A stretch of DNA of 63,640 bases from Catajapyx aquilonaris (taxonomy: Eukaryota): NCBI GenBank assembly GCA_000934665.2, contig JYFJ02002077.1, positions 1-63,640 of the forward strand, written 5' to 3'. Position 1 is the stretch's first letter. Every line of letters begins with the position of its first letter. Positions 2,119 to 26,902 of the stretch are shown piece by piece. The position numbers and the translations under genes were made by a program. The notes beneath the pieces were generated by a model. It saw nothing but the letters and a program-made list of their open reading frames with translations, was not told the origin of the DNA and ran no database searches.

Positions 2119-5100
2119 CTATCCCAGCTTGATAATTTCTTGGGTGCTCTGCATCCGTCGCAGCTTCTTGTAGAAAGTAACAGCAGCTGGGTGAGCCCGG
2201 ATGCAGTCTGGATTGAAGTCCAGCACTCGGAGAGACTTCATGCTCTTTGCACGGGATAGGGCGACATAGGCCTGACCAGACTCAAAGACCCTGCTGAGAC
2301 TCATCTCCACACAGTCCAGTGTCATTCCCTGAGATTTGTGTACTGATATGGCCCAAGCCAGTTTCAGTGGGATCTGCTTGCGGGATAAGGTTAATCCACC
2401 CGAGGAGCGGACAGACCACTGCTCATACTTGATAGTCTCTGTGCGGCCATTCAGGAAACGGACCTGAGGTAACCCTGTGAAAAAAGTTCAGATTATAGTA
2501 GTAGGACTCTCTTCCCTACTTATGGTTCTGGTTGAGAGAGACAATGACATGTGATTTTGTAGTTTTCATACTTGATAGCAGCTAACAGACTGCTAAGCCA
2601 CAAATGAGAAGCTTTGCACTCAAAAATAGTTATTCCCTGAACTGACAGCCATAGGTTCTTAAAATATACCATCCGTGTGTAAGTTTGATAGATAGTTGAT
2701 ATGGGGATTTGACGTAACAGTAATGCTTTGGTTGCCACTAGGCATCAACTCAAGGGGTTATTCACTTACATTTTTTGTGTACACGGACTACCTACAAAGG
2801 TGTACAAGGACTACCCTTAGTGAATAACCCCTTGCATCCACTGCACTGTGGGTTGAGAAGCTACTTTCGAAGAAATCCTTCTAAGGCTTATCAAAAATTT
2901 TAGAGAGCAAATATTCACTTCAATGGAAGTATCCCTTCAGAATTCAGATCATGAACTACAATTATCATCATATCCCAATAAGGCTTTGAGAATTACCAAT
3001 TTTGGCTTACTCGCACATGTGGTCAGTGGTTGAACCTTTTTTTAAAAATTGCCTCGACTCTCCTGCACTAGTTCAGTTGGATATATTCTTGCAATCCAAT
3101 ATTACCAGCTAATATTTTTTTGATATCCTGTAAGTTTCTTAGTGAAATTGAATTTCTACATAATGTGGACCATGTATGCACCTTGTAAAAGTATTATAAG
3201 ATTTTGGTGTAAGATTATGTTCTTACCATTTTCCTTAGAAAAACAGGTGACAACTCCCCTTGCTCCATTGACCAAACCCTGTGAGACATCCAGGTTTTTC
3301 AACAACATGACTTGGGCTCCAGTTTTTAGAGTCAGGGAGGAGGAAACCGGAGTTTGCTGGTCCAAAAACTTGTACAAGTTGGTGTCGCTATCTACTGATT
3401 TGAACTCCTTTGCTGCACCTAAATCATGATGAAATTAGACAACCTGAAGTATTGCAAGGTAACGGGGAACTCACCCGGAAGTCTATCCAGCTCAGACTGG
3501 TTCACTTGGTCAACGTCTTCTGTGTGTGTGCATAGTCGAGTAGCTTGGATCCCTTCTTGGCTTACACTATTGTGTGCAGTTGCTTTCAGCTTCTCTGCCA
3601 CTTTGGGGGGACACCTGAGGAGGAGTAATGTGTGTTTTGTTATTTTGTTTAAAAAATTGCACCTTGTTATTGTGGGGGTTCCAGGAAAAATATTTTGAAC
3701 AGAAAAAAGGGTTCTGCAACAAGCAAAAGACTGCAGACCAGTAGCTGACACCATCATGCTGTCAACCAGATAAGAGACCCACTTACTCGCCAAGTCGTAT
3801 CTGCTGCAGTAGCTGGACAAACTCTGCTTCAGACTGCCGCTTGACTGCAGTCAACTCATGGGTGAGCTGCAAGCATTTTTCCCAAGCAATGGATTGGAAG
3901 CAGAACTTTCGCTTCTGGTCTCCCTTAACTACAGGGGGAAGTTGCAAGAAATCCCCACACAAGATCAACTGAATGCCTCCAAAGGGCCTGTCATTTCCCC
4001 GCAACATCCTGGCAACTGCTTCAAGCTTCTGGAACATGTCAGCATCCACCATGGACACCTCATCCACTATTAAATGGCGGCACTTCTTCCAGTTGAAGTG
4101 AGCAATACGATTTGAGAGTGCCTTGTTGAAACACTGTTGTAGCGGGGCTTCTCCACTTCCGATCCCTGCAAAGGCATGAAGCGTGGTGCCACCTATCTGG
4201 CAAGCAGCCACACCAGTGCTGGCTGTGACGAAGGTACTCTCCGGTGGGAGGAGACCTACAATGCACTTGAGGAGGAATGACTTGCCTGTGCCTGCACTTC
4301 CTGAAAGGCAAGTTCATAAATAGATGTTAATAATCACATATTGCAACCTTGGATATAAAATGACTGAGTGGTGAGAGTGAGATACATTAACGAGGGCACA
4401 CAACTCTATCTGAAATTAATTCATCCATTCCTCTGATGCTCCTTTTCATGATTGTAATAATATTGCATTATGCTTCATGCCACAAGTCAATAACATGCTT
4501 TTATGCAACCACCATTATTTTGTTTTCACCAGATTATTCTTCGTGTGGAGGATCACTTAGGAGCCTTCACCCGAGCCATGTCATTCCATGTGTTTGGAGT
4601 GACCCAAAACCATAGCAGCCCTTATTGGTCAAGTGATCTTCACACATGTCAGGCCACACAATATTAGTAACTTTGTTTAGTAATAGAGATATTGGAGGGT
4701 ATGAGCACTGACATAATGGTAATGTAGTAACACAGGAGCAGCAGCAGTAGTAATGACAGTAAATCTATTAACCTGTGAAAAAGAGGCTTTTCCCACTCAT
4801 CACAGCACTGACGACATTCTTTTGCTCAGCAGTCAGTGTAGCCAGGCTCAGTGAATACAACAGCGGTTTTTTAGCCACAACACCGTGTTCTTTCTGAAAC
4901 AAGTAAAACAAGGGAAATCATACCAGGTGGTGACAGGCAAAACAAAATGACCTTACCTTGACAGAATTGTCCTCTTCTCGCATCCTCTTCCTTGGCAAAT
5001 TTGTCCTTTCCCTCATTGGTGTCACTTGGCCCTTTGCATTCTGAGCATCTGAAGCCTTTCCAATCTGCTTGCGAAGGCTATCCAGATCCTTGTCAGTCAG

Positions 5101-5558
5101 AGGACTAATCTCATCAAAACTTGGCTTCTTTTCGGTCAATAACCGCTGTCGGCATGTAGGATGCACGACATCTTTGTCAGCAGCCATCTTGGCACACAAA
5201 GTGCGCAGAAAAGTAAAGATCTGGCTAGGAGGCGCATCTGAAACCATCAGTTTTGCAGCTGGTTTTCGAATCTCAAATGTAGCTTTGCCCTCCTAAAAAT
5301 ATTTACGGTTTAGTTATTTGGCTCTCACGTGCATTGAAATGTCCAGGTTACCTTCATAAAACGTTTGTGAATAAGAGCTTCCTTCAGAGAATACAGGGAA
5401 GCAGTTTTCCCAGTCTCCACTCTAAGGAGCAGGTCCCTGAATTCATTACGCCCCATCAGAAGGGCAGCCTTCTTGTGGGTGGCGCGGTGTGAGTTTGGAT
5501 GCTCCACAACCAAGGTGCAAGTCACGCTCACACCACCTTCCTCAGGGCGAAAAGACAT
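2119..5558 (-). CDS. PIF1: ATP-dependent DNA helicase PIF1
   Basis: Spliced exons ~5558-5352, 5292-4956, 4893-4773, 4301-3787, 3616-3474, 3418-3226 and 2475-2119. Motifs: Walker [63 protein letters not shown] and [10 protein letters not shown]. Confidence 0.96.
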
Positions 5559-6305: not shown

Positions 6306-9300
6306 ATGGGGTTGACCAGAAGGACCCTGCCTTTCTCGGCACTCATTATTGCCAGCTTTCTTCACACTGTGTCTCCTGGTGAGTTTTGCTCTGGCTAATT
6401 GCCTGCAATCTTGCAGTGTATGAAATGCAATTTTTAAAAGCTAGAGTTACCTGAGTGAGAAGCAATCGAAAGTTAACAGTAGCTGGATACTTTGCCATAA
6501 AAGAATTGATTTTACTTGATCAACATAGGGGAAATATTACTTGAATATGCAGATATGTCAATTCTACCGTCCAGGTGTACACACAATGTTATTATGTTGC
6601 ATACGGCAGTGATTTGCTTCCTTGTGTGCATGACCTGCAGTCTTATCTGTTTTACACCCATATTATCAGCCCAGCCTACATAAAGCTTCTGCCGACAACC
6701 GATAAAAGTTACAGCTGTCAGTGGACAATGGATCATGACCAACATTACTATTCCATCAACATTTAAAAGTATTCATCTCAATTTATTTTTAACATTTGAT
6801 GCTGCAATTAGGCTTGGTATTAATTGACGAAAAGTGTTGCAAGAGAAGATTGACTTACATGCTGGTCAAGTCATGAGTGATTATTATTATTGGTAGCAGG
6901 AGAAAACAAATGTACCTCCTGAGTTAATTCTACCGGTGCCAGTCATTAAGCATTACTCTTTTGATTAGTTTCCCCACTGTAAATTATTATTTCATTGTGT
7001 ATAAGGTAATTATAAAATGAAGTGCAGCTTGGAACATTGAAGGATTTTTTTCCTAAACAGATGGGCCTGTTTTGTTTCCTCTCTTTTTTTCCTGCTGTTA
7101 AACAACTTACTTCCTGCAGGAAGCCAACTGTCAGGATCAATTTACAACAACTTGAGGTACTTTGAGACTCTCCCGGCATCTGAACTTAACCATCATGTAG
7201 TCAAGCGAGGAGTGAATCCTAGTCCTCACCCACTCAACACAATAAAGGAAGTTTCCTTCAAGACCATGGGGAGGTGAGATATATTGGTACTTTCATATTC
7301 TAGGTGGAGATTTCACAATCACACCATTTTTGCAGGAATTTTCGGCTGATTTTGTCCCCACAGAAAGAATTATTTCATTCTCAATTCAAAGCATATGATG
7401 TTGGCCGCGATGGGAAAGAAAAACCCATCACGATAAGTATGGTGACATTTACAAGACATTCAGTATGCTTGTGAATAAAATGTAGCTGACAAAACCATTT
7501 TTCACAGATCGAGACAATTTTTATGTTGGACGTGTGTTTGGAGAAATTGAATCTGATGCTAGGCTACATTTGGATAAAGGAGTAATGACTGGAACTATTC
7601 GCTTACCAGAAGATTCATATCATATTGAGGTGAGTAAGGTATATTTTGCTTGCAATTCAGGGTAAGAAAATTAAAATAGTTCCTTCACAATATTAAAAAT
7701 AGGTAGATCTATTACTCCCCAAATGGAGTGCAATAAAGTACACTGGTATAAAAAGGTACTTTTATTTGTTAAGATTGTCTTTTGGGTTATATTTGTCCAG
7801 AATTCCTTGTTCATACCAAGGACTACTGATAATTCCATTGCTTTTTTTGGAAATTGCAATATAAATGTAACAGTTCAATAGTATTCTTCTAGATGAACAA
7901 TATGGAAATTATTTTTTGGACATTATGATATCTTACTGACTTTCGCCTTGAGAGACATGTAGTATTACTTTACCTGCACAATTGACAGCCATCCTGGAGG
8001 CACCTGCCAGAGACAGACTATGACACCATGCTCGTCTACCGTGGCTCAGATGTGAAGTTCAGCTGGGAGAGTGACGAGCTTGATCCACAGGAGAGGAGAG
8101 TGTGTGGGTATGTCCAGGAAGAGGCCAACGCCACCAGGAGTGACACAGAGAAGGGCCAATGTGAAGAGGGCTGTGAAAGGGAGAAGAGGCAAGCCGACCT
8201 GTACGACTACACTCCAACCAAGACTCGTTGTCCCCTCCTCCTGGTGGCAGACTACCGGTTTTATCGAGAAATGGGAGCCAGCAACACTAAGACTACCATC
8301 AACTACTTGGTTATAACACTGCACCTGCTTATTAGCATGGCACCATTGCATGATCAAATATTGTAATGGCCTGATAGGATCTATGTAGGAAACAAAATAA
8401 CCATTGGCAGGGCAGACTGTGTCACAGTTACGGCGACCTGACCATAAAGGCCCCGCGCAGACTGAGAAGATTGTAGGAAGTTAAATATCCTGTATAAATA
8501 TTATGGCCAGGATTGAAGATGTAATAGAGAAGAAACTAAAAAACTCAGTAATTTAATGTGTGTCACAAGAGTGGAAAGAAAGAATTAACCTGGGGAGACA
8601 GTAGTTGGACTGCAATCATTATAAGTGGTGATAAATACTTGCAGTTGGGATACATGTCTGGTGGAGATAATCTTTAAAATACTGCTATGAAATAAATACC
8701 TTTATCGCATTGGAAAAGGTCATGTTAGCATGCAAACACACAAACAATAACATAGTATAGTCATATCCCTTTATAACGAATCTGAATATAACGGAAATCC
8801 TCGTATAACGGATTTTTTTTGGTGACCATCAGAGGCCCCATATAAACACATGTTAAAAATATCAGTTTTTAACGAATGGATTTTCGGTTTCGGTTCGCAT
8901 ATAAAGAAAAAATTTCACTCCTCCCGTCCCACCTCTCGGCTGAAAAAGGGCAGAAGTTGGCAAATCGGGCCATAAATCACCATCTGTGCGTTCCGGATTC
9001 TACTTCTTTTCACACATTCTGTCCAAAAGTTGATAATTTGGGGTCCTAATGGAAGGGAAAGGATTCTCTGGGAGGGCTCTTGGGCAGTGACTCTGAGCTC
9101 CGGGCAGTGACTTTGAGCTCCGGACTGGATTTGTTGCTAGCATGTGGGCCCCCCAGAGTAGGAGGCATGTGGTTAAAGCCTGGGAAAATTCATCTGAAAT
9201 ATGAGTAGCAAAACGAATCACATCTGGAACGGAATTGCTGGACTTGGACTTATCATATAAGCAGGTGGGATAAGTGCTTGGCCTGCATCTGGTGCAGTCC

Positions 9301-12300
9301 TCCGGTGTTTGTTCAGTCAGTGTGGCTGATCAGACGATTTGCTGTAGATTATTGTTGTTACCTTTGCGCCGTGCTTTGTGAGATAATCTAATTAAGTGCG
9401 GAAGAATTTTTAAACTATTTTCCCGCTACCAGGGCTTAATATAATGCCTAAATATTTAAAAAAGTTAGGTTTAAATGCGTTTTTTAATATAATGAAATTT
9501 GCATATAACGAAAGACTTTGGTTCCCTTCAATTTCATTAAGAGGGATTTGACTGCATATATTATGAATTGAGGCGCTCAGAGGAAGAACGGCATATCCCA
9601 ACTGACCTCCAATTTTGAGTTTGTAGTGCTGTTGTACTCTCCTTCCATCTACCTTTCATGTGCTGAAATACCAAATGAATTGGAACATGTCAAAGCTCAC
9701 ATATTCCACTTGTAAAATTTGTCCTTAGCTTTAGCTGCATGATAAGCAAAACACGAAAAGCCACTTTTCTCTAAATGAACTCTGGTTGGGATATGCCATT
9801 CTTCTTCTGAGCACCTCAAATATTTATCATGCATGTGCATTATGCCTTTTTCCTGAAATTTGTCAATAAGTGAGATTGTTTAGTTTTGTGATTACATCAT
9901 ATGCACCTATATCCTTGTTGCAGATAAGCCTGATAGATCGAGTCCACAAAATATATGAGGACACCCACTGGCGAGATCGTCCAGATGAAGAAGGTTTCAA
10001 AGGAATGGGATTTGTTATTAAGAAGATTGTGGTGCACAGTGATCCAACACAAGTGCGTCATGGAGAACTACACTACAATATGGCTCAGGACAAGTGGGAT
10101 GTTCGCACTCTGCTTGAGGTAAAACATCTGCTTGAGGTCTCAAACGAAGTAAAATTGTAAAGGCCAAAGGATTATTAGGACTCTCCTTCGTTTGTTGTCT
10201 TTGGCTTAAATGAAATGTATACCTCGTGATAGCTCTAAAGTGGACCCTCCAAAACAACAAATCTGTGTTGTGATTGCATGTAGATAGAGAGATTGATAGA
10301 TTATCCCCATCCTTACAACTAGAATTGCATATGCTTGCATCTGATATTTCCGTTGACACTTGCATGCCGGGAACGTAAGGAAGGATCAGGTATTCGTTAC
10401 CTGCTCTTTATTACTCATCTTCATTAGCTACTGGTATTAGTAGGGGATGTTAATAAAATCTTGAGATTGCCTGCAAGTAAGTTATGTACGTAAAATGCTA
10501 ATATTTTAAAGTAGTAATGAAGTTGGAGTAAGTGCATGACTTGCTTGAAGACTAAGATTCATTGTACAAAAGTTTTCTTGCATCAGCTGTGTTTTATAAA
10601 ACAAATTACAGTAAAACTTCTATAAGTCAAATCTCCATGGGTTTGGAATTTTTAAAGCACATAACTCTATAAAGAAGCCTACCTCTATATCCAGCGACGA
10701 AAGGTGTTCAAAACTTAAAAATAACTGTCACTATCACACTTATAATGTTCCTCGTTGTTTTGTTGTAAAAAAAACTCTGTTATTGACATTTGCCTACTCT
10801 TAGATTCAAGGATTCAATTGTCACAATCGAGTGAAACACTTCTTTCGGTACGTCTGGTAGAAGGAGATCAGGGAATTGAGCCTTTCTGTACATGTGGCCT
10901 ACTCTCGACCCTTCGGCTGGGAAATGAGAAAATTTTCCATTCTCGCCAACATGAACTTGGACTTAGGGAGACTGAAAATGCATTGATATCCCATCGTAAG
11001 GCCCTGCCTGCACTTCGAGTTATGGAGAACTTCGAGTTTTAGAAATTCAAGTTAGGGAAGTTGATTTCCTATTATTTTACATTGTGACCAACCAAGCTAA
11101 TCATTTTCTTCGACTTATAGAAGTTTTACTATATTTTGCTTTCTCTTTATAATGGGTATGCAAAAGGAATTCTATTAAGCTCTATCGTCTGAAGTCCATT
11201 GAGCCAGCACACCAGAACTTGCTGTATTCACTGGCATGTAAACAAGTGCCAAGTCAAATCTTTGCTTTTGATTTTCTCAAAACTTGTTTTTTGGACTGTG
11301 GATTTCTCTTATATGCCCACAATGTATGTACATTTTTCAAGAGAATGGGGTCAATTTGGAATGAGTCCCATTTCTAGGTGTTTTCACGTGGGAATCATTC
11401 TGAGTTTTGCCTGGCACACCTGCACACTCACTCTGGATTCACCACTGGTGGAGGCAGTGTACTTGGCTTGGCCTACATTGCCTCCGCCAGGTTTCACTCT
11501 GCGGGTGGGATTTGTTCTCAAGGTGCACCAACATTTTAAATTTATCACTCACTAAGTGGGGATGCATGTGTCATGATCGCTAACCAACAATATCAGTGTT
11601 ATCATCATTGCGTTTTTAAATGCTCCATTGATCCAGAAATTAGAACCTGAAACTGGACTTCTAAAATACCATGTGCCCTTCAAAAAGCATACTGGTGAGG
11701 ATCTGAAACTTTTTTGATGCTCCAAACAGAAGACATAAATGGTTAAAGTTTGTAACTAGCTGAGGGTCATGTGATTGCAGGTGACTTCATGAGTACTTAC
11801 ATTGACAGTGGAGGCATTGCCTATCTATGCTGTTGTCACTTTTCACAGCTACTGTTGCTTTATTGCTGTTGGATGTGACTGAATTCAAAGAGGAGGGTAT
11901 CACCTGACTTTCTGCAGCATTTTCAGCTAGAAGGGAAGCCCAAATAAGTGTCTAGCATGAGTAGAATTGAGTTGTCAGCAAGGGCATAGGCATGCATATG
12001 GTAGCACAAAGTCCTCATCAAACATGGAAATGGAGACATATTTATTGAGTCTTCCAACATTCTTTACATTCTTTTGGTTGAGTTGTTTATAAGAATCAGA
12101 AAATCAACTATTAGTGCTTTTTATGAACAGCCTGGAAATAGTTGAAAGGATTTAATAATATTGCAAACATGGTACATGGTGGATGGTGTTGTAAGCAACA
12201 ATAAATTGCAATATGTTTGTTCTGTACCACACATCTTATTTGCATTTGTTATAGTAATTAATGGTTTTAAATATGCAGGTACATGTACTAATTTACTTTA

Positions 12301-14797
12301 TTAAATCCTGATAAGTGTTCCTAATACTACTAATGGTGAAGGGTCTGCCCTTTTTTCCCTCCCTTTTCTGGTGCAGGTATTTAGTCGAGAGTACAGTCAC
12401 AAAGACTTTTGCTTGGCTCACCTTTTCACTGACCTCAAGTTTGAAGGTGGTATCCTAGGCTTGGCTTATGTGGGTTCCCCTCGTCGTAACTCAGTTGGAG
12501 GTATTTGCACTCCAGGTTGGTGGCTGGTTCTGGGTGTATATTGCTTGAATGTTGACATGCACTTGTATATGCAGTGCCATTCTTTTTGTAGAGTACTTCA
12601 AGAATGGCTACACTCTCTACTTGAACTCTGGCCTCAGCTCCAGTCGCAACCACTACGGCCAGAGAGTAATCACTAGGGAAGCAGATCTGGTGACAGCACA
12701 CGAATTTGGACACAACTGGGGTTCTGAGCATGACCCAGACATTCCTGAGTGTAGTCCAAGCGCAAGTCAAGGAGGATCATACTTAATGTACACTTATTCA
12801 GTCAGTGGATATGACATGAACAACAAGGTAACATGATGGTGTCTAAAGTACTGATTGTCAGGTGTTACCCTTTTTTTTAGTCAGGGTAGAAATTTGACAA
12901 AAGTGACCTAGTAATGTTCACTTGTAGGTGCGTGTTTAAAAGAAACGAGTCACAGAGTACTTGTAGACATAATAAAATAGAATTTCAATTATTTAGTTTT
13001 TACAGTCTGCTATTTACTGGTAGTACTATTTTCATGCTCATGGCATGGCCTAGATTCATAGTAAGATGTCCGTGACATTCAGAACTGCTCTTTTGACTGA
13101 GACTCGTTGAGACATATTTTTCAGTGGCATTCTGAAAGATTCCGTCTTGTCTTCATCTTGGTACTGGCCCTTGACCATTTCTGCCACTTATATACTGTGT
13201 AAAAAACACAACTTATACATGTATGTTGTATACTGCCCTAGTTCAAGGGGGTGGACCAAGAAGTTACGAATTGATTGTTCCCCCCAGAAACTGGGAGAAA
13301 GAGAATCAGTAATCACTACAAGTGAATGTTGCGCTGAAGTTGCTTTCAGGATTTTTTGTTTTGTTTTTTAAGTGAATACTGAGGTAGGCAACTATTCATG
13401 GGGCCCCTTGTCAGAGCCAAGTTTAATTTTCCACTTGTCCAGAATTGTATAATTAGTGCTTTTTTGTCAAATTCAGTCACATGAATGTGCCACTTTGGAG
13501 AAATACTCGTTGCACCTTGCAGAAATTTTCACCATGCAGCTTACGTTCAATACGTAAGGTTCTTTTGGCCAAGAGTGGTCGATGCTTTTCTGAACCAGAA
13601 GAATCCTTTTGTGGTAATCTACGTGTGGAAGGTGAAGAGGAGTGTGATGCTGGCCTCCTTGGAACAGAGGATTCTGATGCTTGCTGTGACAAAAATTGTC
13701 GGCTGCGACGTGAGCAAGGAGCTGCATGCAGTGACAAGAACTCCCCTTGCTGTCAAGCCTGTCAATTCCTGCCCGTAGGAAGCAAGTGCCGCCATGCACA
13801 GCTGGCCACATGTGAACAGGAGAGTCGATGCACTGGAAACTCAGCCGACTGCCCAAAATCACCCCCAATGCCAGATGGGACGGAGTGTCTGGAGAGGGGA
13901 AAGTGTGTGCATGGGAGATGCATGCCGTTCTGTGAAACACAGAGCAAGCAAAGCTGCATGTGTGATGACAGTAAGTGCATTTGGATTGTAGTGCAAACAT
14001 CCCCCATTTTACAGATGCAATCTATACATATACTAGATTTATAGCCTACATACTTTGTCTAAGGGCCACCAATTGTTCACAGTCATCGACATTTTTACTG
14101 GTTGGGTTTTAACGTGGGAGTTTGACCTGGAATTCTGACTCACTCTGTAGGCCTATATTATAATGATAAATGAGAAGTCATGCATATTTGCAATCTTGAA
14201 GAATGGTATATCTAAAATAACATTAGGAAACTTATGCAAAGTGAGGGAAAATATTTCCTATTTGCAGTTGCTACCGCATGCCGGCGTTGTTGTCGTCTGC
14301 ACCTGAATGCAACATGCATGCCAGTGGAGCCACAGGATACCCTTCCAGATGGCACTCCCTGCATACAAGGCTTCTGCAACAAAGGAGTGTGTGAAAAGAC
14401 AGTCCAAGATGTTGTAGAACGCTTCTGGGACATCATTGAGGATATCACCATTAACACAGTACTGCGGTTTCTACGTGATAATATTGTAGGAACAGTAGTG
14501 GTATCGTCTGTTCTTGTGTGGATTCCTGCCAGCTGTCTCATCAGTTACGTTGACCGGAAGCGTAGGCTGGAGTACCAGAGGGACAGGGAGTGGCGTAGAA
14601 GGAATGAGTTTATCCATCCATCTGACTCAAGGCAAGTTATACATCTCCGAAAGAAGAGAGGAGTTGGGGTAGGGAGCAGTAACATTGGTGGAGGAGGAGG
14701 GGAGCCTATGCCCATACCATCTGCACCTCCAGCAACTCCACGCTCGGAGATGGGTCACTCACGGATGACCCCTATGCACCATGTGGCGCCATTGTGA
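6306..14797 (+). CDS. ADAM17: ADAM17/TACE disintegrin metalloprotease
   Basis: Signal peptide exon [18 protein letters not shown]. Exons ~6306-6378, 7120-7272, 7336-7436, 7509-7629, 7989-8310, 9923-10118, [11378-11522 or 12377-12515], 12592-12827, 13523-13970, 14268-14797. Cys switch VCGY, furin site REKR, zinc motif [12 protein letters not shown], Met-turn YLMY, disintegrin domain, [13 protein letters not shown] (CANDIS-like) and a transmembrane helix. Confidence 0.96.
8758..9540. mobile_element. Degenerate pogo/Tigger-like element in ADAM17 intron
   Basis: Terminus TAGTCATATCCCTTTATAACGAA with repeated ATAACG(G/A)A subterminal motifs, which recur near 9505. Confidence 0.45.
10609..11131. 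mobile_element. pogo/Tigger-like MITE (family A, copy 2)
   Basis: Colinear with 267-877, with the same TIRs and TA flanks and small internal deletions. Confidence 0.9.
11378..11522 (+). CDS. ADAM17: Alternative duplicated ADAM17 catalytic-domain exon A
   Basis: TTTCTAG|GTG ... CAAG|GTGCAC. Open 145-nt exon encoding [48 protein letters not shown], homologous to exon 12377-12515 and with the same splice phases (0 to 1). Confidence 0.82.
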
Positions 14798-17021: not shown

Positions 17022-17607
17022 ACAAGGGAACGGTCAGGGTCGGTCGCCTCTGATTTGGTTGAAACTTGCTTGAGGGGTCATTCATGTGCGATAGACACCG
17101 TGGTGAAAGTTGTAGCTGACACTGTCCAGCTGTTTCCGAGATATGAGCGACAGAAACATCAGAAATTTGGCCCGGTATTTATTATGAGAGACCTCTCATA
17201 ATAAATACCGGAGCAAAGAAACAATGGAAAACGAAACTGTTGGTGGAGGAGTGGGGGATGGTGTATGCTGTATGAGTGTATGGGATCGGAAAAAAAAAGG
17301 GGGGGGGGGGGGNGGGGGGGAATCAAGGTAGAAGGGATTTGGAGCTGGCAGAGCAGCTCACGGCAAAATCACATGTCCAATGCTCTATGCACTTGACTAC
17401 CATCAGCTCTTCCTTGCATTCATCCCTTCTAGCCCGAACTCCTATGTGTGGGGCCAAAATTAGGATGTTTCTGTCGCTCATATCTCGGAAATGGTTGGAC
17501 AGTGTCAGCTAAAACTTTCACCACTGCACTGTGTCTATCACACATGAATGACCCCTCAAGCAAGTTTCAACCAAATTGGAGGCTACCGACCTTGACTGTT
17601 CCCTTGT
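17022..17607. mobile_element. Foldback/long-TIR non-autonomous element
   Basis: Imperfect inverted arms of about 150 bp (ACAAGGGAACGGTCAGGGTCGGT... / ...ACCGACCTTGACTGTTCCCTTGT), plus an internal hairpin at 17172-17211. Confidence 0.85.
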
Positions 17608-17921: not shown

Positions 17922-20620
17922 TTATGCTACAACCTTGGCCTCCAAACTAGAAACCACATCAGGTATCCTCTGCACAAGCTCCTTCTCTGTGAGTTTGAAG
18001 TCACTCTGGATCCAGTCTTCCTTGAGGATCTGCAGCACCTTGGTCATGGCCCGTCCTGATGGTACCCCTGCTTCTTTCAGAGCCTGTCCTCCCACAGGAA
18101 ACCTTGGTGTCTGCCACTCTTGCAATCCCTTCAGCAGGTTTCCATCTCCCCTGTATTTCAGCACCTCCCCCACCCATTCTCTGACGTCTGACTGCTTGCA
18201 CTTGGCTGTCAGGATCAATGTTTGGTATGGCCTCAGGCGGTTCTCAGAAGGTTTGTCCTGACGGTGCTCCACAACAAATAGACAACAGTCACGTTCAAAG
18301 CTGGACAGGCGGAGGCGAGAGTGCATGTGAAGGACTTCGGATTCATCCCTCAGAAGAGATGCCAAGAGGGTTACCGGCTGGAAGTTATTCAAAGGCAATT
18401 ATGTCAGTACATATATCTGAACTGAATTTAACCTGAAAAAGACAGAGTTCAGATTTCTGGTTTGGACCACTCAAGAGGGTGGTGCAATTCCAAACATGAC
18501 ACAAGCAAAAAGGTGTAAGACTAGAGATTAACTTTCCCAATCCCATGAGCCAGTCACACATGACTTATCACCACAGACCTACTTTTTGCATCCCTCTGTA
18601 AAGTACCACATAAAATGAGGGCTGTGGGGGAAAAACATGATAACTGACAAAAGAGTAATTTTTCAGGAGAGCGAATTGAAGTTTGAATTTGCTTAACAAA
18701 TCATAGGGAATGCTGGTTTTGATCTAGTCCGTGTGGCCGTCTCGTGCATGATACATTAACTTGGAGTATACCAAACTGTTTGTCATGTCTTATACATAGT
18801 TGCTAGGTGTTTAGGTAAAAAATGACAAAAATGTCAGTTATCATGTTTTTCCCCCACAGCCCTCAAATGATACTCACTGCAGGTTTGAAAGAGCTGGCTC
18901 TCTCCCACATAATGTTGAGTTGTTCCTTCCTGTCCAAGCAGTTCTCAGGTAGACCCATGTATGGCCCCAGCTCAAGTCCCATCATTAGCATGAGTAAGCC
19001 TACAGAATTGTTTCCAGAGAGAATCTTCCTTAGTTCACTCCACACTCTCTCCCCAGATATTCTTCCAAGACCATCCCTGCACTCTCGAATGGCCTCCAGG
19101 GTGTTTTTATCATGATTATCATGATCTCTGGAAATTCGGCCATGGAACCTAAAGTATCTGAAATGTTACAAAGCTAATTTGAGACACGCACAAGTTAGTC
19201 AACATAACTAACAATAAGAGACCTACAATAAAAAATAAAGAATACACCTTGCAAACATGGGGAGCCCATGGGAAGGGAAAGTCTGCAGTTTTCACTGCAA
19301 GAGATTATAGCAGCGGTTTCTCTGTCAAGGACAGTGCATGGAAGCTCATACAATATAATTATACAATGAAAACTGTGTGGCATATGTTCCATATATTTGG
19401 CTCAGTCATGTGTGTTCAATAGCAAACCTTACACATGTGGCAGGAACTTGTCATCAAAATTATAATATTCCACATCCAGTAATTTTAAAAAACTCAAACT
19501 GCTCCCAAGGTTTCCCTCAGGCTTACCTGAGAATGCGCAAGTAATCTTCCTGTATCCTCTTGGTTGGGTCCCCAACGAATGCTACTCTTCGTTGCTCAAT
19601 GTCTTTGAGGCCATCCACATAATCATAAACAGTTCCATCCAATCCAAGAAACAAGGCGTTAACAGTGAGGTCACGACGAGTTGCATCTAGCTGCCAAGAG
19701 GTGGTGAAGTCAACCTTGGCATGTCGACCATCTGTCACGAGGTCAACTCGAAGAGTAGTTACTTCAAAGTTAGCCTTGTCATTAATCCGGGCTGTGACAG
19801 TGCCATGAGATTCCCCTTTGGAATTAATAGTGCGGATTTGCTCAGAAGCAAACATGGACTTCATCTGATCTGGAGTAGCAGGCGTTGCGAAGTCAAGGTC
19901 ATGGGGCTGCACACCTGAAAGACGAACCATGAGAATAAATACACAAGTCAATCACGAATATGTGGGTGAAAAATGTTGCCCGAGAGGAAATAATTCAAAT
20001 AAATCAATGACTGCCTTTCCTAAATGCCGACTAAGGTCCTAATCAGCCAGAAAAATCTTCAGTGCGATCAGAGTCTGCACCTTTCACATGACAATACTTG
20101 CAACACATCTAGAAGTGGAGAGTGTGACACTGCTGCCGTACCTGTTAACTATTGTCACAAGTCATTTGTGGCCATGACATGTCAATACCCTGGCTAGAAC
20201 CTGCCACTGCAGCACAACCCAGCAAGCATGAGGAGTCAAATGGGAATTATATTTAGGCGGGATGTGCGACTGACCCATGAGCAGGTCCCTGACGGCCCCC
20301 CCTGCGATCCGGATCTGATGTCCGTGCCTCTGGAAGATGCCGGCCAGTGTGTCCAGCTCAGGGGTGAAAATGGACTTGAACTCTGGGCTGCCGGTGTCCA
20401 GCTTGAAGGTGGTGGGATCCATCTCGTCGCCGGTTGAGGTGTGGACGTCGCGTCGACAGCGGGGGTGGTGGTGTCGGTGACTGTGGGTGCAGGCAGGGGC
20501 CACCAGCGCAGTGGTCGTCCTCCTGCCCAGGCACCAGCAGCGGACGGTCGGCGATGCAGCAACGGCTGAGGCAACAACTGTCCGAAGCTGCAACACGCGC
20601 AACACACTGCAAGCCGCCAT
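17922..20620 (-). CDS. TRNT1: CCA tRNA nucleotidyltransferase 1
   Basis: Exons ~20620-20274, 19914-19527, 19158-18878 and 18380-17922. Motifs [43 protein letters not shown] and ISGERVW. Arg-rich N-terminal presequence. Confidence 0.95.
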
Positions 20621-24400: not shown

Positions 24401-26902
24401 GGCAAAGATTGACGAGGATTTATAATTTTAGACTCAGTATAGATGACTAATGCAGTAATTAAATAGAGAGTGGTACACTTGTGTAGTGGTTATTACCACA
24501 GCCTTTCACCTCTGAGGTCCCCTGCTTAATCCCTGTATCAGACAGGGATTTATCATGTGCAATTAGTTTCAACCCTGGTTTTGGAACCAGCAAGACCAGC
24601 AAACACCAGCATGCTGGTAACAGCAAAACAGTGCCAATTCCCAGCAGACCAGCATGCTGGTACCAGCATACCAGCATTGCTGGTTTCAAAACCGGGGAAT
24701 GTCCCATATCCCCATACTTGCAATGGTTTTCTCTGAGTTCTCCTGTTTCTCCCACTGTCAGAATCTAACTCCACAGAAATTGATGAAAGTCTGTGTATCA
24801 AAGAGGATCCCCTATAAAGAGGCTACAGACCTATCTTGGGGTAACCGATTACTTTTATTATTGGACACTTGGCTGAAGCGTAGCCAGATAGCTATAGTTG
24901 CTTTGGTTCCTTCCCAATCACACAACAACTTTTATTATTTTGAATGTAATTACTACTAATTGTCATTAACAATTCATCATGATTACTGGTGGTAGTGTAA
25001 ATCAGGTTTATTTTATGCACATTTGGTAGTTCTACGTGCACTAAATTTCATTAGGAAAACTACTGTAGATTTACCAAAGAGCAGGAAAAACAATGATGGA
25101 GTAGTTCACAAATTCAATCTGACAGCATTGCAAGTGATTTTAATGTATATTAATAATTCACAGCCATAAGTCTAAAAGTTTAAACAAAATACCCCCACTT
25201 CTATCCCTATGCACTATAGTAAAAACAAGTGAGTGTTTGCAATCTGGAGATAGGGAGAACAACACATTTTACTTTCACTAAAAAATTCCCATTGCAATTT
25301 TTTAAAATGAACATATTCCTAGATCAGAAACGGCATCAAATTAGTTTTGTTACATTGTACAATGTACAGTACAGTCTTTTTGAGGTTTATGCAAACTTAC
25401 AAGGAAAAGGTAGATATGGCAAGATATCTCAGATTTTTCCCCATGTGACTTCACCATTTTCCTTGAGAAAGGGAAGTGTGACACACCCCCCCCCCCCCCC
25501 CCCCCCCCCCGAATAATGTATGTGTGGGAGGTGGGGAATTAAGGCCTTGCTTGCAAAGGTGCAGGGATTTTGTTATTACAGAATAATGGACAGCTGACAA
25601 TATTTAAGTCACAGTTACATGCAAATAAATATCAGTGTCTTAACAAAGCAGGTGAATGATTTATTTTATTTCCGTTCTGAGGTCCAGTCAAAGTGCCTGC
25701 TGCAGTGGGTGCTCCAATGAGGCAGAAAGGCGAACAACATCGGGTTATAGTATTTTCTCATGGATTGGGAGGTTGCCGTACAACATACTCCACCACCTGC
25801 ACTGAGCTTGCCTCCAGAGGATTTGTGGTTGCAGCTGTAGAACACAGGTATAATCATTAGTTAAAGTACCAGTACTTAAAATGACGTTCCTCATGTTTGG
25901 TGTTTGGCAGAGATGGAACGGCATGCATCACCTATCATTTGAAAAAGGATGAAAATGATGGACCAGTGAAGATTAAGTGGGTTCCACACACGTTCATTCC
26001 TCCTTCACAAAGGCAGTACCCTATTCGTAATGAGCAGGTTAATAACGGCAGTGTTTCTATCAAAAGAGCACATGATTTATGCTAACTGATAAGGCCTATT
26101 TCAGGTGAATCAACGAGTATCTGAATGCCAAGCTGCTCTGGAGTTGCTACACAAACTAAATGAAGGAGAGGAAATTGTTAATGTCCTGGGTGACACTATG
26201 GAGTTCAAACAGTTTGAAAACTGTCTAAATTTGACTCGACCAATAATGATGGGTCACTCTTTTGGAGGGGCCACAACAATCCGAGCTTGTGCCACTGACA
26301 ATCGATTCCAGTACATATACTTTTTAATTGTCATAATTAATGCAGCACTAATTCATTGTTCATTTATAGTGGAGGGGTAATTTTGGACTGCTGGATGTTC
26401 CCACTGAAGGAAGATCGCAAGGTTGCACCAACCATAACCCAGCCACTGTTGTTCATCAACATGGAAGGTTTCCAAACAAAAACTAATCTGAGTGTGATGA
26501 AGTGGTTTGAAGGCCCTGATAAGAAAGTCCTCACCTTGAGGTGAGTCATGATAATAGTCCTAATTTCTGCAGACCAATACATTTATCTTGTCACAGGGGT
26601 ACAGATCATACCAACCAAACTGATATCCCCTTCATAAGTGGCTATCGGATTGTAAAGTGGCTTCTGCATAGTGCAACCAAGATGGATGCGTATTTGGCCA
26701 AAGATCTTTCCAATGCACTGGCGATCACATTTATTCAGAAGACCTTAGGTATGTGCATTGAATACCGCATCATTGTATTTTCATAGCACATTGTGCGATT
26801 CTTGTTTCAGGTGATGCGATGTACATTGACCTGCAGCAGATAATTGATGACAACAGAGGTGATATCATTGAAGGCATTTCATTGCCTGATAATCACCTGT
26901 GA
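21459..26902 (+). CDS. Platelet-activating factor acetylhydrolase (PLA2G7/PAFAH2 family)
   Basis: Exons ~21459-21609, 22329-22426, 23145-23259, 25682-25847, 25911-26037, 26106-26310, 26380-26540, 26597-26748 and 26811-26902. Motifs [40 protein letters not shown], catalytic GHSFGG, LDCWMFP and GTDHTNQTD. Confidence 0.92.
22566..23027. mobile_element. piggyBac-like MITE
   Basis: TTAA-CCCTTAACTACGTAGGTGG ... CCACCTACGTAGTTAAGGG-TTAA, with a duplicated subterminal repeat at the right end. Confidence 0.9.
23476..23635 (+). mobile_element. SINE 3' fragment
   Basis: Near-identical to 41525-41690 (GAGTTGCTTCCGTAATTAATAGGCCACAGCCGCTTCCTTCC...GGGGTATGAATT). Confidence 0.85.
24470..24850 (+). mobile_element. 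Degenerate tRNA-derived SINE interrupted by a MITE
   Basis: Head GTGTAGTGGTTA..CCTTTCACCTCTGAGGTC resembles the 1610 copy, and the body GGTTTTCTCTGAGTTCTCCTGTTTCTCCCAC resumes after the insertion. Confidence 0.65.
24573..24697. mobile_element. Small CCC-terminated MITE (EnSpm/CACTA-like)
   Basis: TIR CCCTGGTTTTGGAACCAGCA / TGCTGGTTTCAAAACCGGGG, AA on both flanks, and internal ACCAGCA repeats. Confidence 0.65.

Follow-up and report, generated by a model that had tools for sequence, protein, structure and literature searches.

The metalloprotease ADAM17, or Tace, sheds TNF/Eiger, ligands of EGFR and other surface proteins, and the basis of its specificity is largely unresolved. A stretch of 63,640 nucleotides of Catajapyx aquilonaris (GenBank assembly GCA_000934665.2, contig JYFJ02002077.1, positions 1 to 63,640; hereafter the window) carries an ADAM17-like gene in which two similar exons, here called A and B, lie next to each other within the part that encodes the catalytic domain. 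The question raised by this locus is whether a single gene makes two sheddases by including either one exon or the other in its transcript. The original prediction, made from the letters of the DNA, had taken the two for tandem duplicated and mutually exclusive exons that swap a substrate-binding strand. Comparison with other arthropods points to the same answer in most respects: exons A and B probably form an evolutionarily conserved, mutually exclusive pair of arthropod ADAM17/Tace, in which exon A is in use and gives rise to a second form with a different cleft rim. The probability of this reading is put at roughly 80%.

The host gene and the exon pair

The gene and those of its parts that are needed for the argument are placed as follows.

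7128-14797, + strand: ADAM17-like (Tace) gene, coding part without the first (signal-peptide) exon; collinear tblastn matches of insect ADAM17-like proteins run from 7128 to about 14665, and the open reading frame (ORF) stops at 14797.
9924-10118, + strand: upstream constitutive exon; acceptor ttgcag/ATA, donor GAG/gtaaaa; it ends in ..KWDVRTLLE at phase 0, and Gryllus and Schistocerca proteins are 77% identical.
11378-11522, + strand: exon A (A-type alternative exon), 145 nt, 48 codons and 1 nt; acceptor tttctag/GTG, donor AAG/gtgcac.
11523-12376, + strand: intron separating exons A and B, 854 nt.
12377-12515, + strand: exon B (B-type, near-invariant), 139 nt, 46 codons and 1 nt; acceptor ggtgcag/GTA, donor CAG/gttggt.
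12592-12827, + strand: downstream constitutive exon, tag/AG TAC TTC AAG giving (E)YFK, with the zinc motif and the SYLMYTY Met-turn region; 95% identical to Gryllus.
13526-13969, + strand: disintegrin/cysteine-rich exon (PF00200, E=1.3e-12), at best 83% identical to insect ADAM 17-like proteins.

Judged by its domains and its relatives, the gene is a member of the ADAM17/TACE subfamily of the M12B (adamalysin) metalloproteases. The catalytic part matches the Pfam families Reprolysin_5 (E=1.6e-13) and Reprolysin_2 (E=6e-12), and the HExxHxxGxxHD zinc consensus, followed by the Met-turn, is found in the exon at 12592-12827. The collinear tblastn matches extend to the C-terminal end of insect ADAM17-like proteins and include a 22-residue hydrophobic stretch, as in a protein with a transmembrane segment and a cytoplasmic tail; the membrane-proximal domain PF16698 is recorded for the ADAM17-like relatives. 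When the disintegrin/cysteine-rich exon was used as the query in a search for relatives, every named protein among the 120 matches listed was ADAM 17-like or Tace, at an identity of no more than 83%. In a search of the PDB, ADAM17 chains outscored ADAM10 for exon A and also for exon B. The whole gene is about 70% identical to those of insects, all orders alike.

Exons A and B are homologous adjacent exons with equal phase at both ends. A profile was built from exons of other species that resemble exon A (A-type exons, as opposed to B-type exons), with exon A of the window left out, and was scanned against all six frames of the whole 63.6 kb. It matched exon A (E=6e-21) and exon B (E=1.6e-19); there being only these two matches, the window holds exactly two copies, with a homology far above chance. 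A third copy was rejected, the next best match of the six-frame scan reaching 8.6 bits (E=0.21).

Translation of the two exons reproduces exactly the peptides of the original prediction, whose account of the splice geometry also holds for both of them: AG/GT ends, a start in phase 0 after LLE and an end before (E)YFK, with lengths of 145 and 139 nt and a spacing of 854 nt. One correction goes beyond the coordinates first given: 12827 is the last position of the downstream exon, and the donor GT follows at 12828. The exons were then joined computationally in the four possible splice combinations. The frame is open with exon A alone or with exon B alone; when A and B are joined there are 10 stops, the first of them 2-3 codons inside exon B, and when both are skipped there are 5, which set in once 10 codons of the downstream exon have been read. 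Since exons A and B are each 3n+1 nt long, a full-length frame is obtained by single inclusion only, and the claim that one exon keeps the frame while both or neither break it is confirmed. Exon A is, in addition, an island of high G+C content (53%, versus 37% in both flanking introns).

Both exon types in other arthropods

The comparison set consisted of fetched arthropod ADAM17-like proteins, from which the segment between ..LLE and EYFK.. was taken. An A-type exon is joined straight to the (E/K)YFK flank in 37 proteins, and B-type segments number 110, of which 87 have EYFK next. The A-type consensus is 49 residues long. Mean pairwise identity is 64% among A-type exons and 88% among B-type exons, chelicerates included. 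Exon B of the window is identical to the same segment in 56 of the 75 database B-type proteins of the first set, and close B-type variants occur in spiders and in a sea spider.

The two types are found as alternatives at a single place. Isoforms X1 and X2 of Sitophilus oryzae (P0128 and P0127), as well as those of Rhynchophorus ferrugineus (P0125 and P0124), are identical outside one 49-column block, which lies at the alternative exon. Contigs of 2551-4254 nt carry A-type proteins of 731-741 aa (P0053, P0065, P0089, P0098 and P0136); they are too short for introns and are therefore derived from spliced RNA. In exon-only ORFs of genomic contigs, on the other hand, A-type exons are bordered by intron sequence. 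In Blattella (P0129), Kerria (P0107) and Ephemera (P0130), a single gene model retains both exons, with A preceding B. Such merged models are likely annotation errors, and they reveal a genomic order that is the same as in the window. To judge from these isoforms and spliced sequences, orthologous arthropod genes yield both single-exon forms, and the comparative support for the predicted mutually exclusive use is strong. The proposal that tandem duplicated exons give two forms of ADAM17 is thus upheld by related species through their flanks, their pairs of isoforms and their RNA-derived A-type proteins.

Among the carriers of A-type exons are Odonata, Ephemeroptera, Orthoptera and Thysanoptera, for which the lineages were checked, and also species that we take to be Blattodea, Hemiptera and Coleoptera. 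Given this spread across orders, the pair would be no younger than the ancestor of winged insects. No A-type exon was seen among the listed Diptera, Hymenoptera, other non-beetle Holometabola, Daphnia, Artemia and springtails, whose isoforms may hide in 90% clusters, and the absence from these groups is weak evidence.

Public isoforms of the insect 'ADAM 17-like protease (Tace)' that show the types of the pair, among them Hetaerina americana X1 (P0022), Anabrus simplex X3 (P0010) and Nilaparvata lugens X3 (P0047), agree with the window in the gene, the position of the exon, the flanks, the two exon types and, where visible, the A-then-B order. They differ from it in that the database isoforms are automatic models, whereas exon A of the window is a divergent member, with His for Phe after LAHL, SG for QT and 48 instead of 49 residues. 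RefSeq-style isoforms X1, X2 and X3 of several insects already carry the pair, which is therefore not new to public data. A literature search that had most subscription journals outside it returned no description of alternative catalytic-domain exons in ADAM17/Tace, and none was found in passages of PMC10970066. The window contributes one further, divergent member of an existing and apparently undiscussed exon pair.

Placement of exon A and alternative explanations

Whether exon A of the window is itself an A-type exon can be approached through the residues that separate the two types. From the conserved Phe to LGLAY there are 7 residues in 30 of 35 non-redundant A-type exons, 4 in all of 17 B-type exons and 7 (TTGGGSV) in exon A. 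The Ile-Ala that follows LGLAY in 30 of the 35 A-type exons, and in none of the 17 B-type exons, is present in exon A (YIA, versus YVG in exon B), and so is the His after FT, another A-type mark. Exon A retains all 16 invariant columns of a 22-row alignment, the row of the window being among the 22. It scores 71.2 bits on the A-type profile and 52.7 bits on a B-type profile, a difference of 18.5 bits in favour of A, while exon B scores 66.6 and 120.3 bits, respectively. In a large tree, the rows nearest to exon A are hemipteran and orthopteran A-type rows, although without support, and in a reduced tree based on 49 columns the B clade excludes exon A with support of 100/95. By its loop length, its YIA and its profile score, exon A would sit in the insect A-type lineage, and a basal position there would fit an early-branching lineage.

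Several findings weigh against the view that exon A is a conserved A-type exon in use. A His takes the place of a Phe (LAHL-F) that all 17 B-type exons have and that only one of the 35 A-type exons lacks, and SG stands where A-type exons read QT. The identity of exon A with exon B is 54% (counted by hand), which falls inside the range of 46-63% found between exon A and A-type exons. In the reduced tree, exon A lies between the A and B groups, the grouping of B with exon A having support of 54/74, and the joining of exon A to the B group was not rejected by the approximately unbiased (AU) test (p=0.588). Neither a HMMER search (92 matches) nor a word-based search (6 matches) returned a relative of exon A with more than 70% identity. 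At the acceptor of exon A the pyrimidine tract is weak (57%, versus a strong 87% for exon B), and its donor AAG/gtgcac is weak as well. Finally, exon A is open in all three forward frames, and its open frame alone therefore says little.

Some of these findings would be accounted for if exon A had arisen by a separate, lineage-specific duplication, so that it would not be an orthologue of the insect A-type exon and might nevertheless still be working. This alternative, which is a rival on origin only, survives best of those considered, and we judge it to be unlikely. The AU result, the place of exon A on the B side of the more careful tree and its comparable identities to exon B and to A-type exons agree with it, and a seeming independent duplication of the same exon in annelids (see below) makes such repeats plausible; it has to contend, however, with a loop longer by three residues and a YIA that exon A and A-type exons have in common, with the 18.5 bits by which the A profile is preferred, with an A-then-B genomic order that matches three other orders and with the position of exon A outside a B clade of 100/95 support. 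A basal place in the A group is, moreover, what would be expected of an early-branching lineage.

Somewhat less probable still is the explanation that exon A has become a relic in Catajapyx aquilonaris, in decay and no longer spliced in though still recognisable, in which case the B form only would be made. A relic would readily have acquired the unique Phe-to-His change in LAHLF and the SG for QT, the poor pyrimidine tract and donor, and the end branch of 0.6, which is the longest among the well-aligned A-type rows; losses may also have occurred elsewhere, as the lack of A-type exons among the listed Diptera, Hymenoptera and other non-beetle Holometabola would suggest within the limits of that listing. 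Yet exon A keeps its frame, its 3n+1 length, its AG/GT ends, both cysteines, LGLAYIAS and GGIC, and it stands out as a G+C island of 53% within introns of 37%. Neutral sequence of 145 nt would hardly be expected to stay 46-63% identical across orders whose separation dates back hundreds of millions of years. That exon A is mainly a poison exon, which when included with B would bring in the stop 2-3 codons inside exon B and lower the output of Tace, is very improbable, as such a role needs no conservation of protein, yet across orders A-type exons hold 16 columns that are invariant and 6 that are nearly so, and they occur alone, in frame, within full-length proteins.

The substrate cleft in the two forms

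A conserved A-type exon in use would alter the part of the enzyme around its substrate cleft. Residues 10-45 of exon B correspond to residues 331-366 of human ADAM17 (chain 8snl_A, E=2.8e-10), and residues 8-47 of exon A correspond to residues 330-366 (E=2.9e-5), three extra residues being placed between Gly346 and Thr347. The aligned human stretch includes Gly346, Thr347, Leu348 and Gly349 of the ligand-binding cleft. According to a review of ADAM17 inhibitor complexes (PMC12491190), ligands are hydrogen-bonded by the carbonyl of Gly346 and by the backbone NH groups of Leu348 and of Gly349, and the non-prime hydrophobic site is lined by Thr347 and Leu350; in a structural overview (PMC4885070), the substrate is described as adding to the central sheet in antiparallel fashion. 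On both accounts, the premise of the original prediction that the G-x-LGLAY segment pairs with the substrate is sound. Its notion of a swapped substrate-binding strand stands in part: the strand itself does not change, LGLAY being identical in exons A and B, and it is the rim of the cleft that does. The swap alters the loop directly before LGLAY, which is three residues longer in A, the residue equivalent to human Thr347 (Ile in B, Val in A) and the 10-residue loop behind the LGLAY strand.

Both cysteines of the segment are present in exon A and in exon B. In the TACE structure, they belong to the disulfide pairs Cys225-Cys333 and Cys365-Cys469. Because the catalytic residues are encoded by the shared downstream exon, both forms should be active proteases. 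In the human ADAM17/TACE catalytic domain (PDB 1BKC, 8SNL) the zinc motif likewise lies in the next exon. The human protein mixes the two types, in the sense that FTYQDF resembles A and YVGSPRANSHGG resembles B. AlphaFold2 models of the beetle A isoform (P0128 with 31 relatives; mean predicted local distance difference test score, pLDDT, 43.0) and of the B isoform (P0127 with 32 relatives; 46.5) were discarded, the catalytic domain scoring below 50. To our knowledge, no alternative versions of this exon exist in the vertebrate ADAM17 gene.

Proposed mechanism of the exon choice

In the explanation proposed here, a tandem duplication of the exon for the equivalents of human residues ~322-367 would have given the pair. 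The duplicated segment would comprise the Cys333 strand, the strand Thr347-Tyr352 that lines the cleft together with the loop that leads into it, and a further loop that runs to Cys365. With one or the other exon spliced in, two sheddases would result, which would have the zinc site, the Met-turn and the other domains in common and would be distinguished by the upper rim of their substrate cleft. Exclusion would be imposed at least by the reading frame, and transcripts with both exons or with neither would presumably be removed by nonsense-mediated decay. Regulated alternative exons usually have weak splice sites. The B form, with its strong acceptor, is probably the default, and the A form, with a weak acceptor and a weak donor, would be the regulated one that needs activation. 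The contrast between a B exon that is almost frozen and an A exon that evolves faster suggests that one form is conserved for housekeeping and that the other is adaptable. We infer that exon A is used in Catajapyx aquilonaris and that the A and B forms may differ in substrate or inhibitor preference.

Steric hindrance was considered as a mechanism of exclusion and was rejected, the 854-nt intron between A and B being too long for it. Nothing points to a docking/selector RNA mechanism of exon choice either: the best inverted repeats between the introns are only 12-13 nt long, at 85-92%, and the energies of duplexes of the intron at 12516-12591 with the other two introns were matched by 10 of 30 and by 12 of 30 shuffles, in what was a crude test without comparative data.

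Comparison with known systems and implications

Mutually exclusive exons that swap specificity segments are known from exon 9 of serpin-1 in Manduca and Bombyx, where the reactive-centre loop is exchanged, from Dscam1, 14-3-3 zeta and para, and among vertebrates from the IIIb and IIIc exons of FGFR2. The ADAM17 pair resembles them in consisting of tandem duplicates of similar length and phase, one of which would enter each transcript, so that a contact loop is changed and the rest is kept constant. It is unlike them in that there are only two variants, that frame incompatibility can explain the exclusion, that no docking/selector pairing was detected and that the part swapped is the cleft rim of a metalloprotease. 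We know of no described case of an exon swap at such a rim.

If the proposed pair is real, one insect gene would make two sheddases, and a conserved switch of the rim only would amount to a natural experiment on the role of the rim, in which a loop is extended by three residues before the strand equivalent to Leu348/Gly349 and the residues behind that strand are changed. Work on Drosophila would have missed the A form if the dual-cleft reading is true, the listings showing no A-type exon in Diptera. In an annotation of this genome, exon A ought to be given as an alternative exon, and neither ignored nor merged with B, as it is in at least three public models.

Ladybirds, annelids and mollusc-like records

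In ladybirds, A-type paralogues are found in Coccinella (P0131), Harmonia (P0133) and Henosepilachna (P0132), and additionally in P0138; they have FTHQTF and the 7-residue loop. Their flanks, WNVRHLLE and a 24-residue block, differ from those of the A/B gene, and they lie on contigs other than that of the B-type gene of the same species (P0112, P0121). With the A-type and the B-type on separate contigs, the forms appear to be divided between genes and not between exons.

Outside the arthropods, the same exon is present twice in tandem in gene models of the annelids Lamellibrachia (P0143), Owenia (P0152) and Paralvinella (P0135); one copy is canonical (..GVLGLAYIGS..), and the other has diverged and reads LGLSY. 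These copies suggest a second, possibly independent pair of alternative exons at the same position.

A broader proposal is that ADAM17 is a hot spot for dual-cleft sheddases, whose rim exon was duplicated at least once in the ancestor of winged insects and separately in annelids and was split into two genes in ladybirds, the A form having a substrate or inhibitor range of its own. This proposal is offered as tentative, and it may well prove wrong. If the annelid and insect duplications are independent, the exon for the cleft rim of ADAM17 would have been duplicated repeatedly in protostomes.

A different arrangement is seen in two mollusc-like ORFs of the ADAM17 exon from environmental records (P0146 and P0150), in which 3-5 tandem units of 23 residues (..C[VM]AHLFTDCMFQMFG.DLYFKDF..) stand in front. 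The first half of the equivalent of the alternative exon is here tandemly repeated inside one ORF.

Other features of the window

An Rfam scan of the window gave no match. The remaining features are the following.

2119-4313, - strand: pieces of a PIF1-like helicase ORF (PF05970, E=6e-45), plus a UvrD_C_2-like C-terminal part.
4918-5292, - strand: ORF with a weak match to the LRR1 PH domain, adjoining the PIF1-like pieces.
10598-11142, strand not assigned: interspersed repeat, about 0.5 kb long, whose 34-nt terminal inverted repeats are 88% complementary, in the intron upstream of exon A.
19523-19951, - strand: exon for a PolyA_pol head domain (PF01743, E=1.7e-26), as in tRNA CCA-adding enzymes.
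25681-26380, + strand: exons of a platelet-activating-factor acetylhydrolase-like gene (PF03403, E=9e-21 and 1.5e-19).

The PIF1-like pieces may belong to a cellular PIF1 gene or to a Helitron-type element. At about 17270-17300, X appears in all frames within a low-complexity stretch rich in Gly and Pro, which indicates at least one ambiguous base. The repeat at 10598-11142 has a second copy at about 381-880, with a mean column identity of 84% between the two, and it looks like a non-autonomous DNA transposon similar to a miniature inverted-repeat transposable element.

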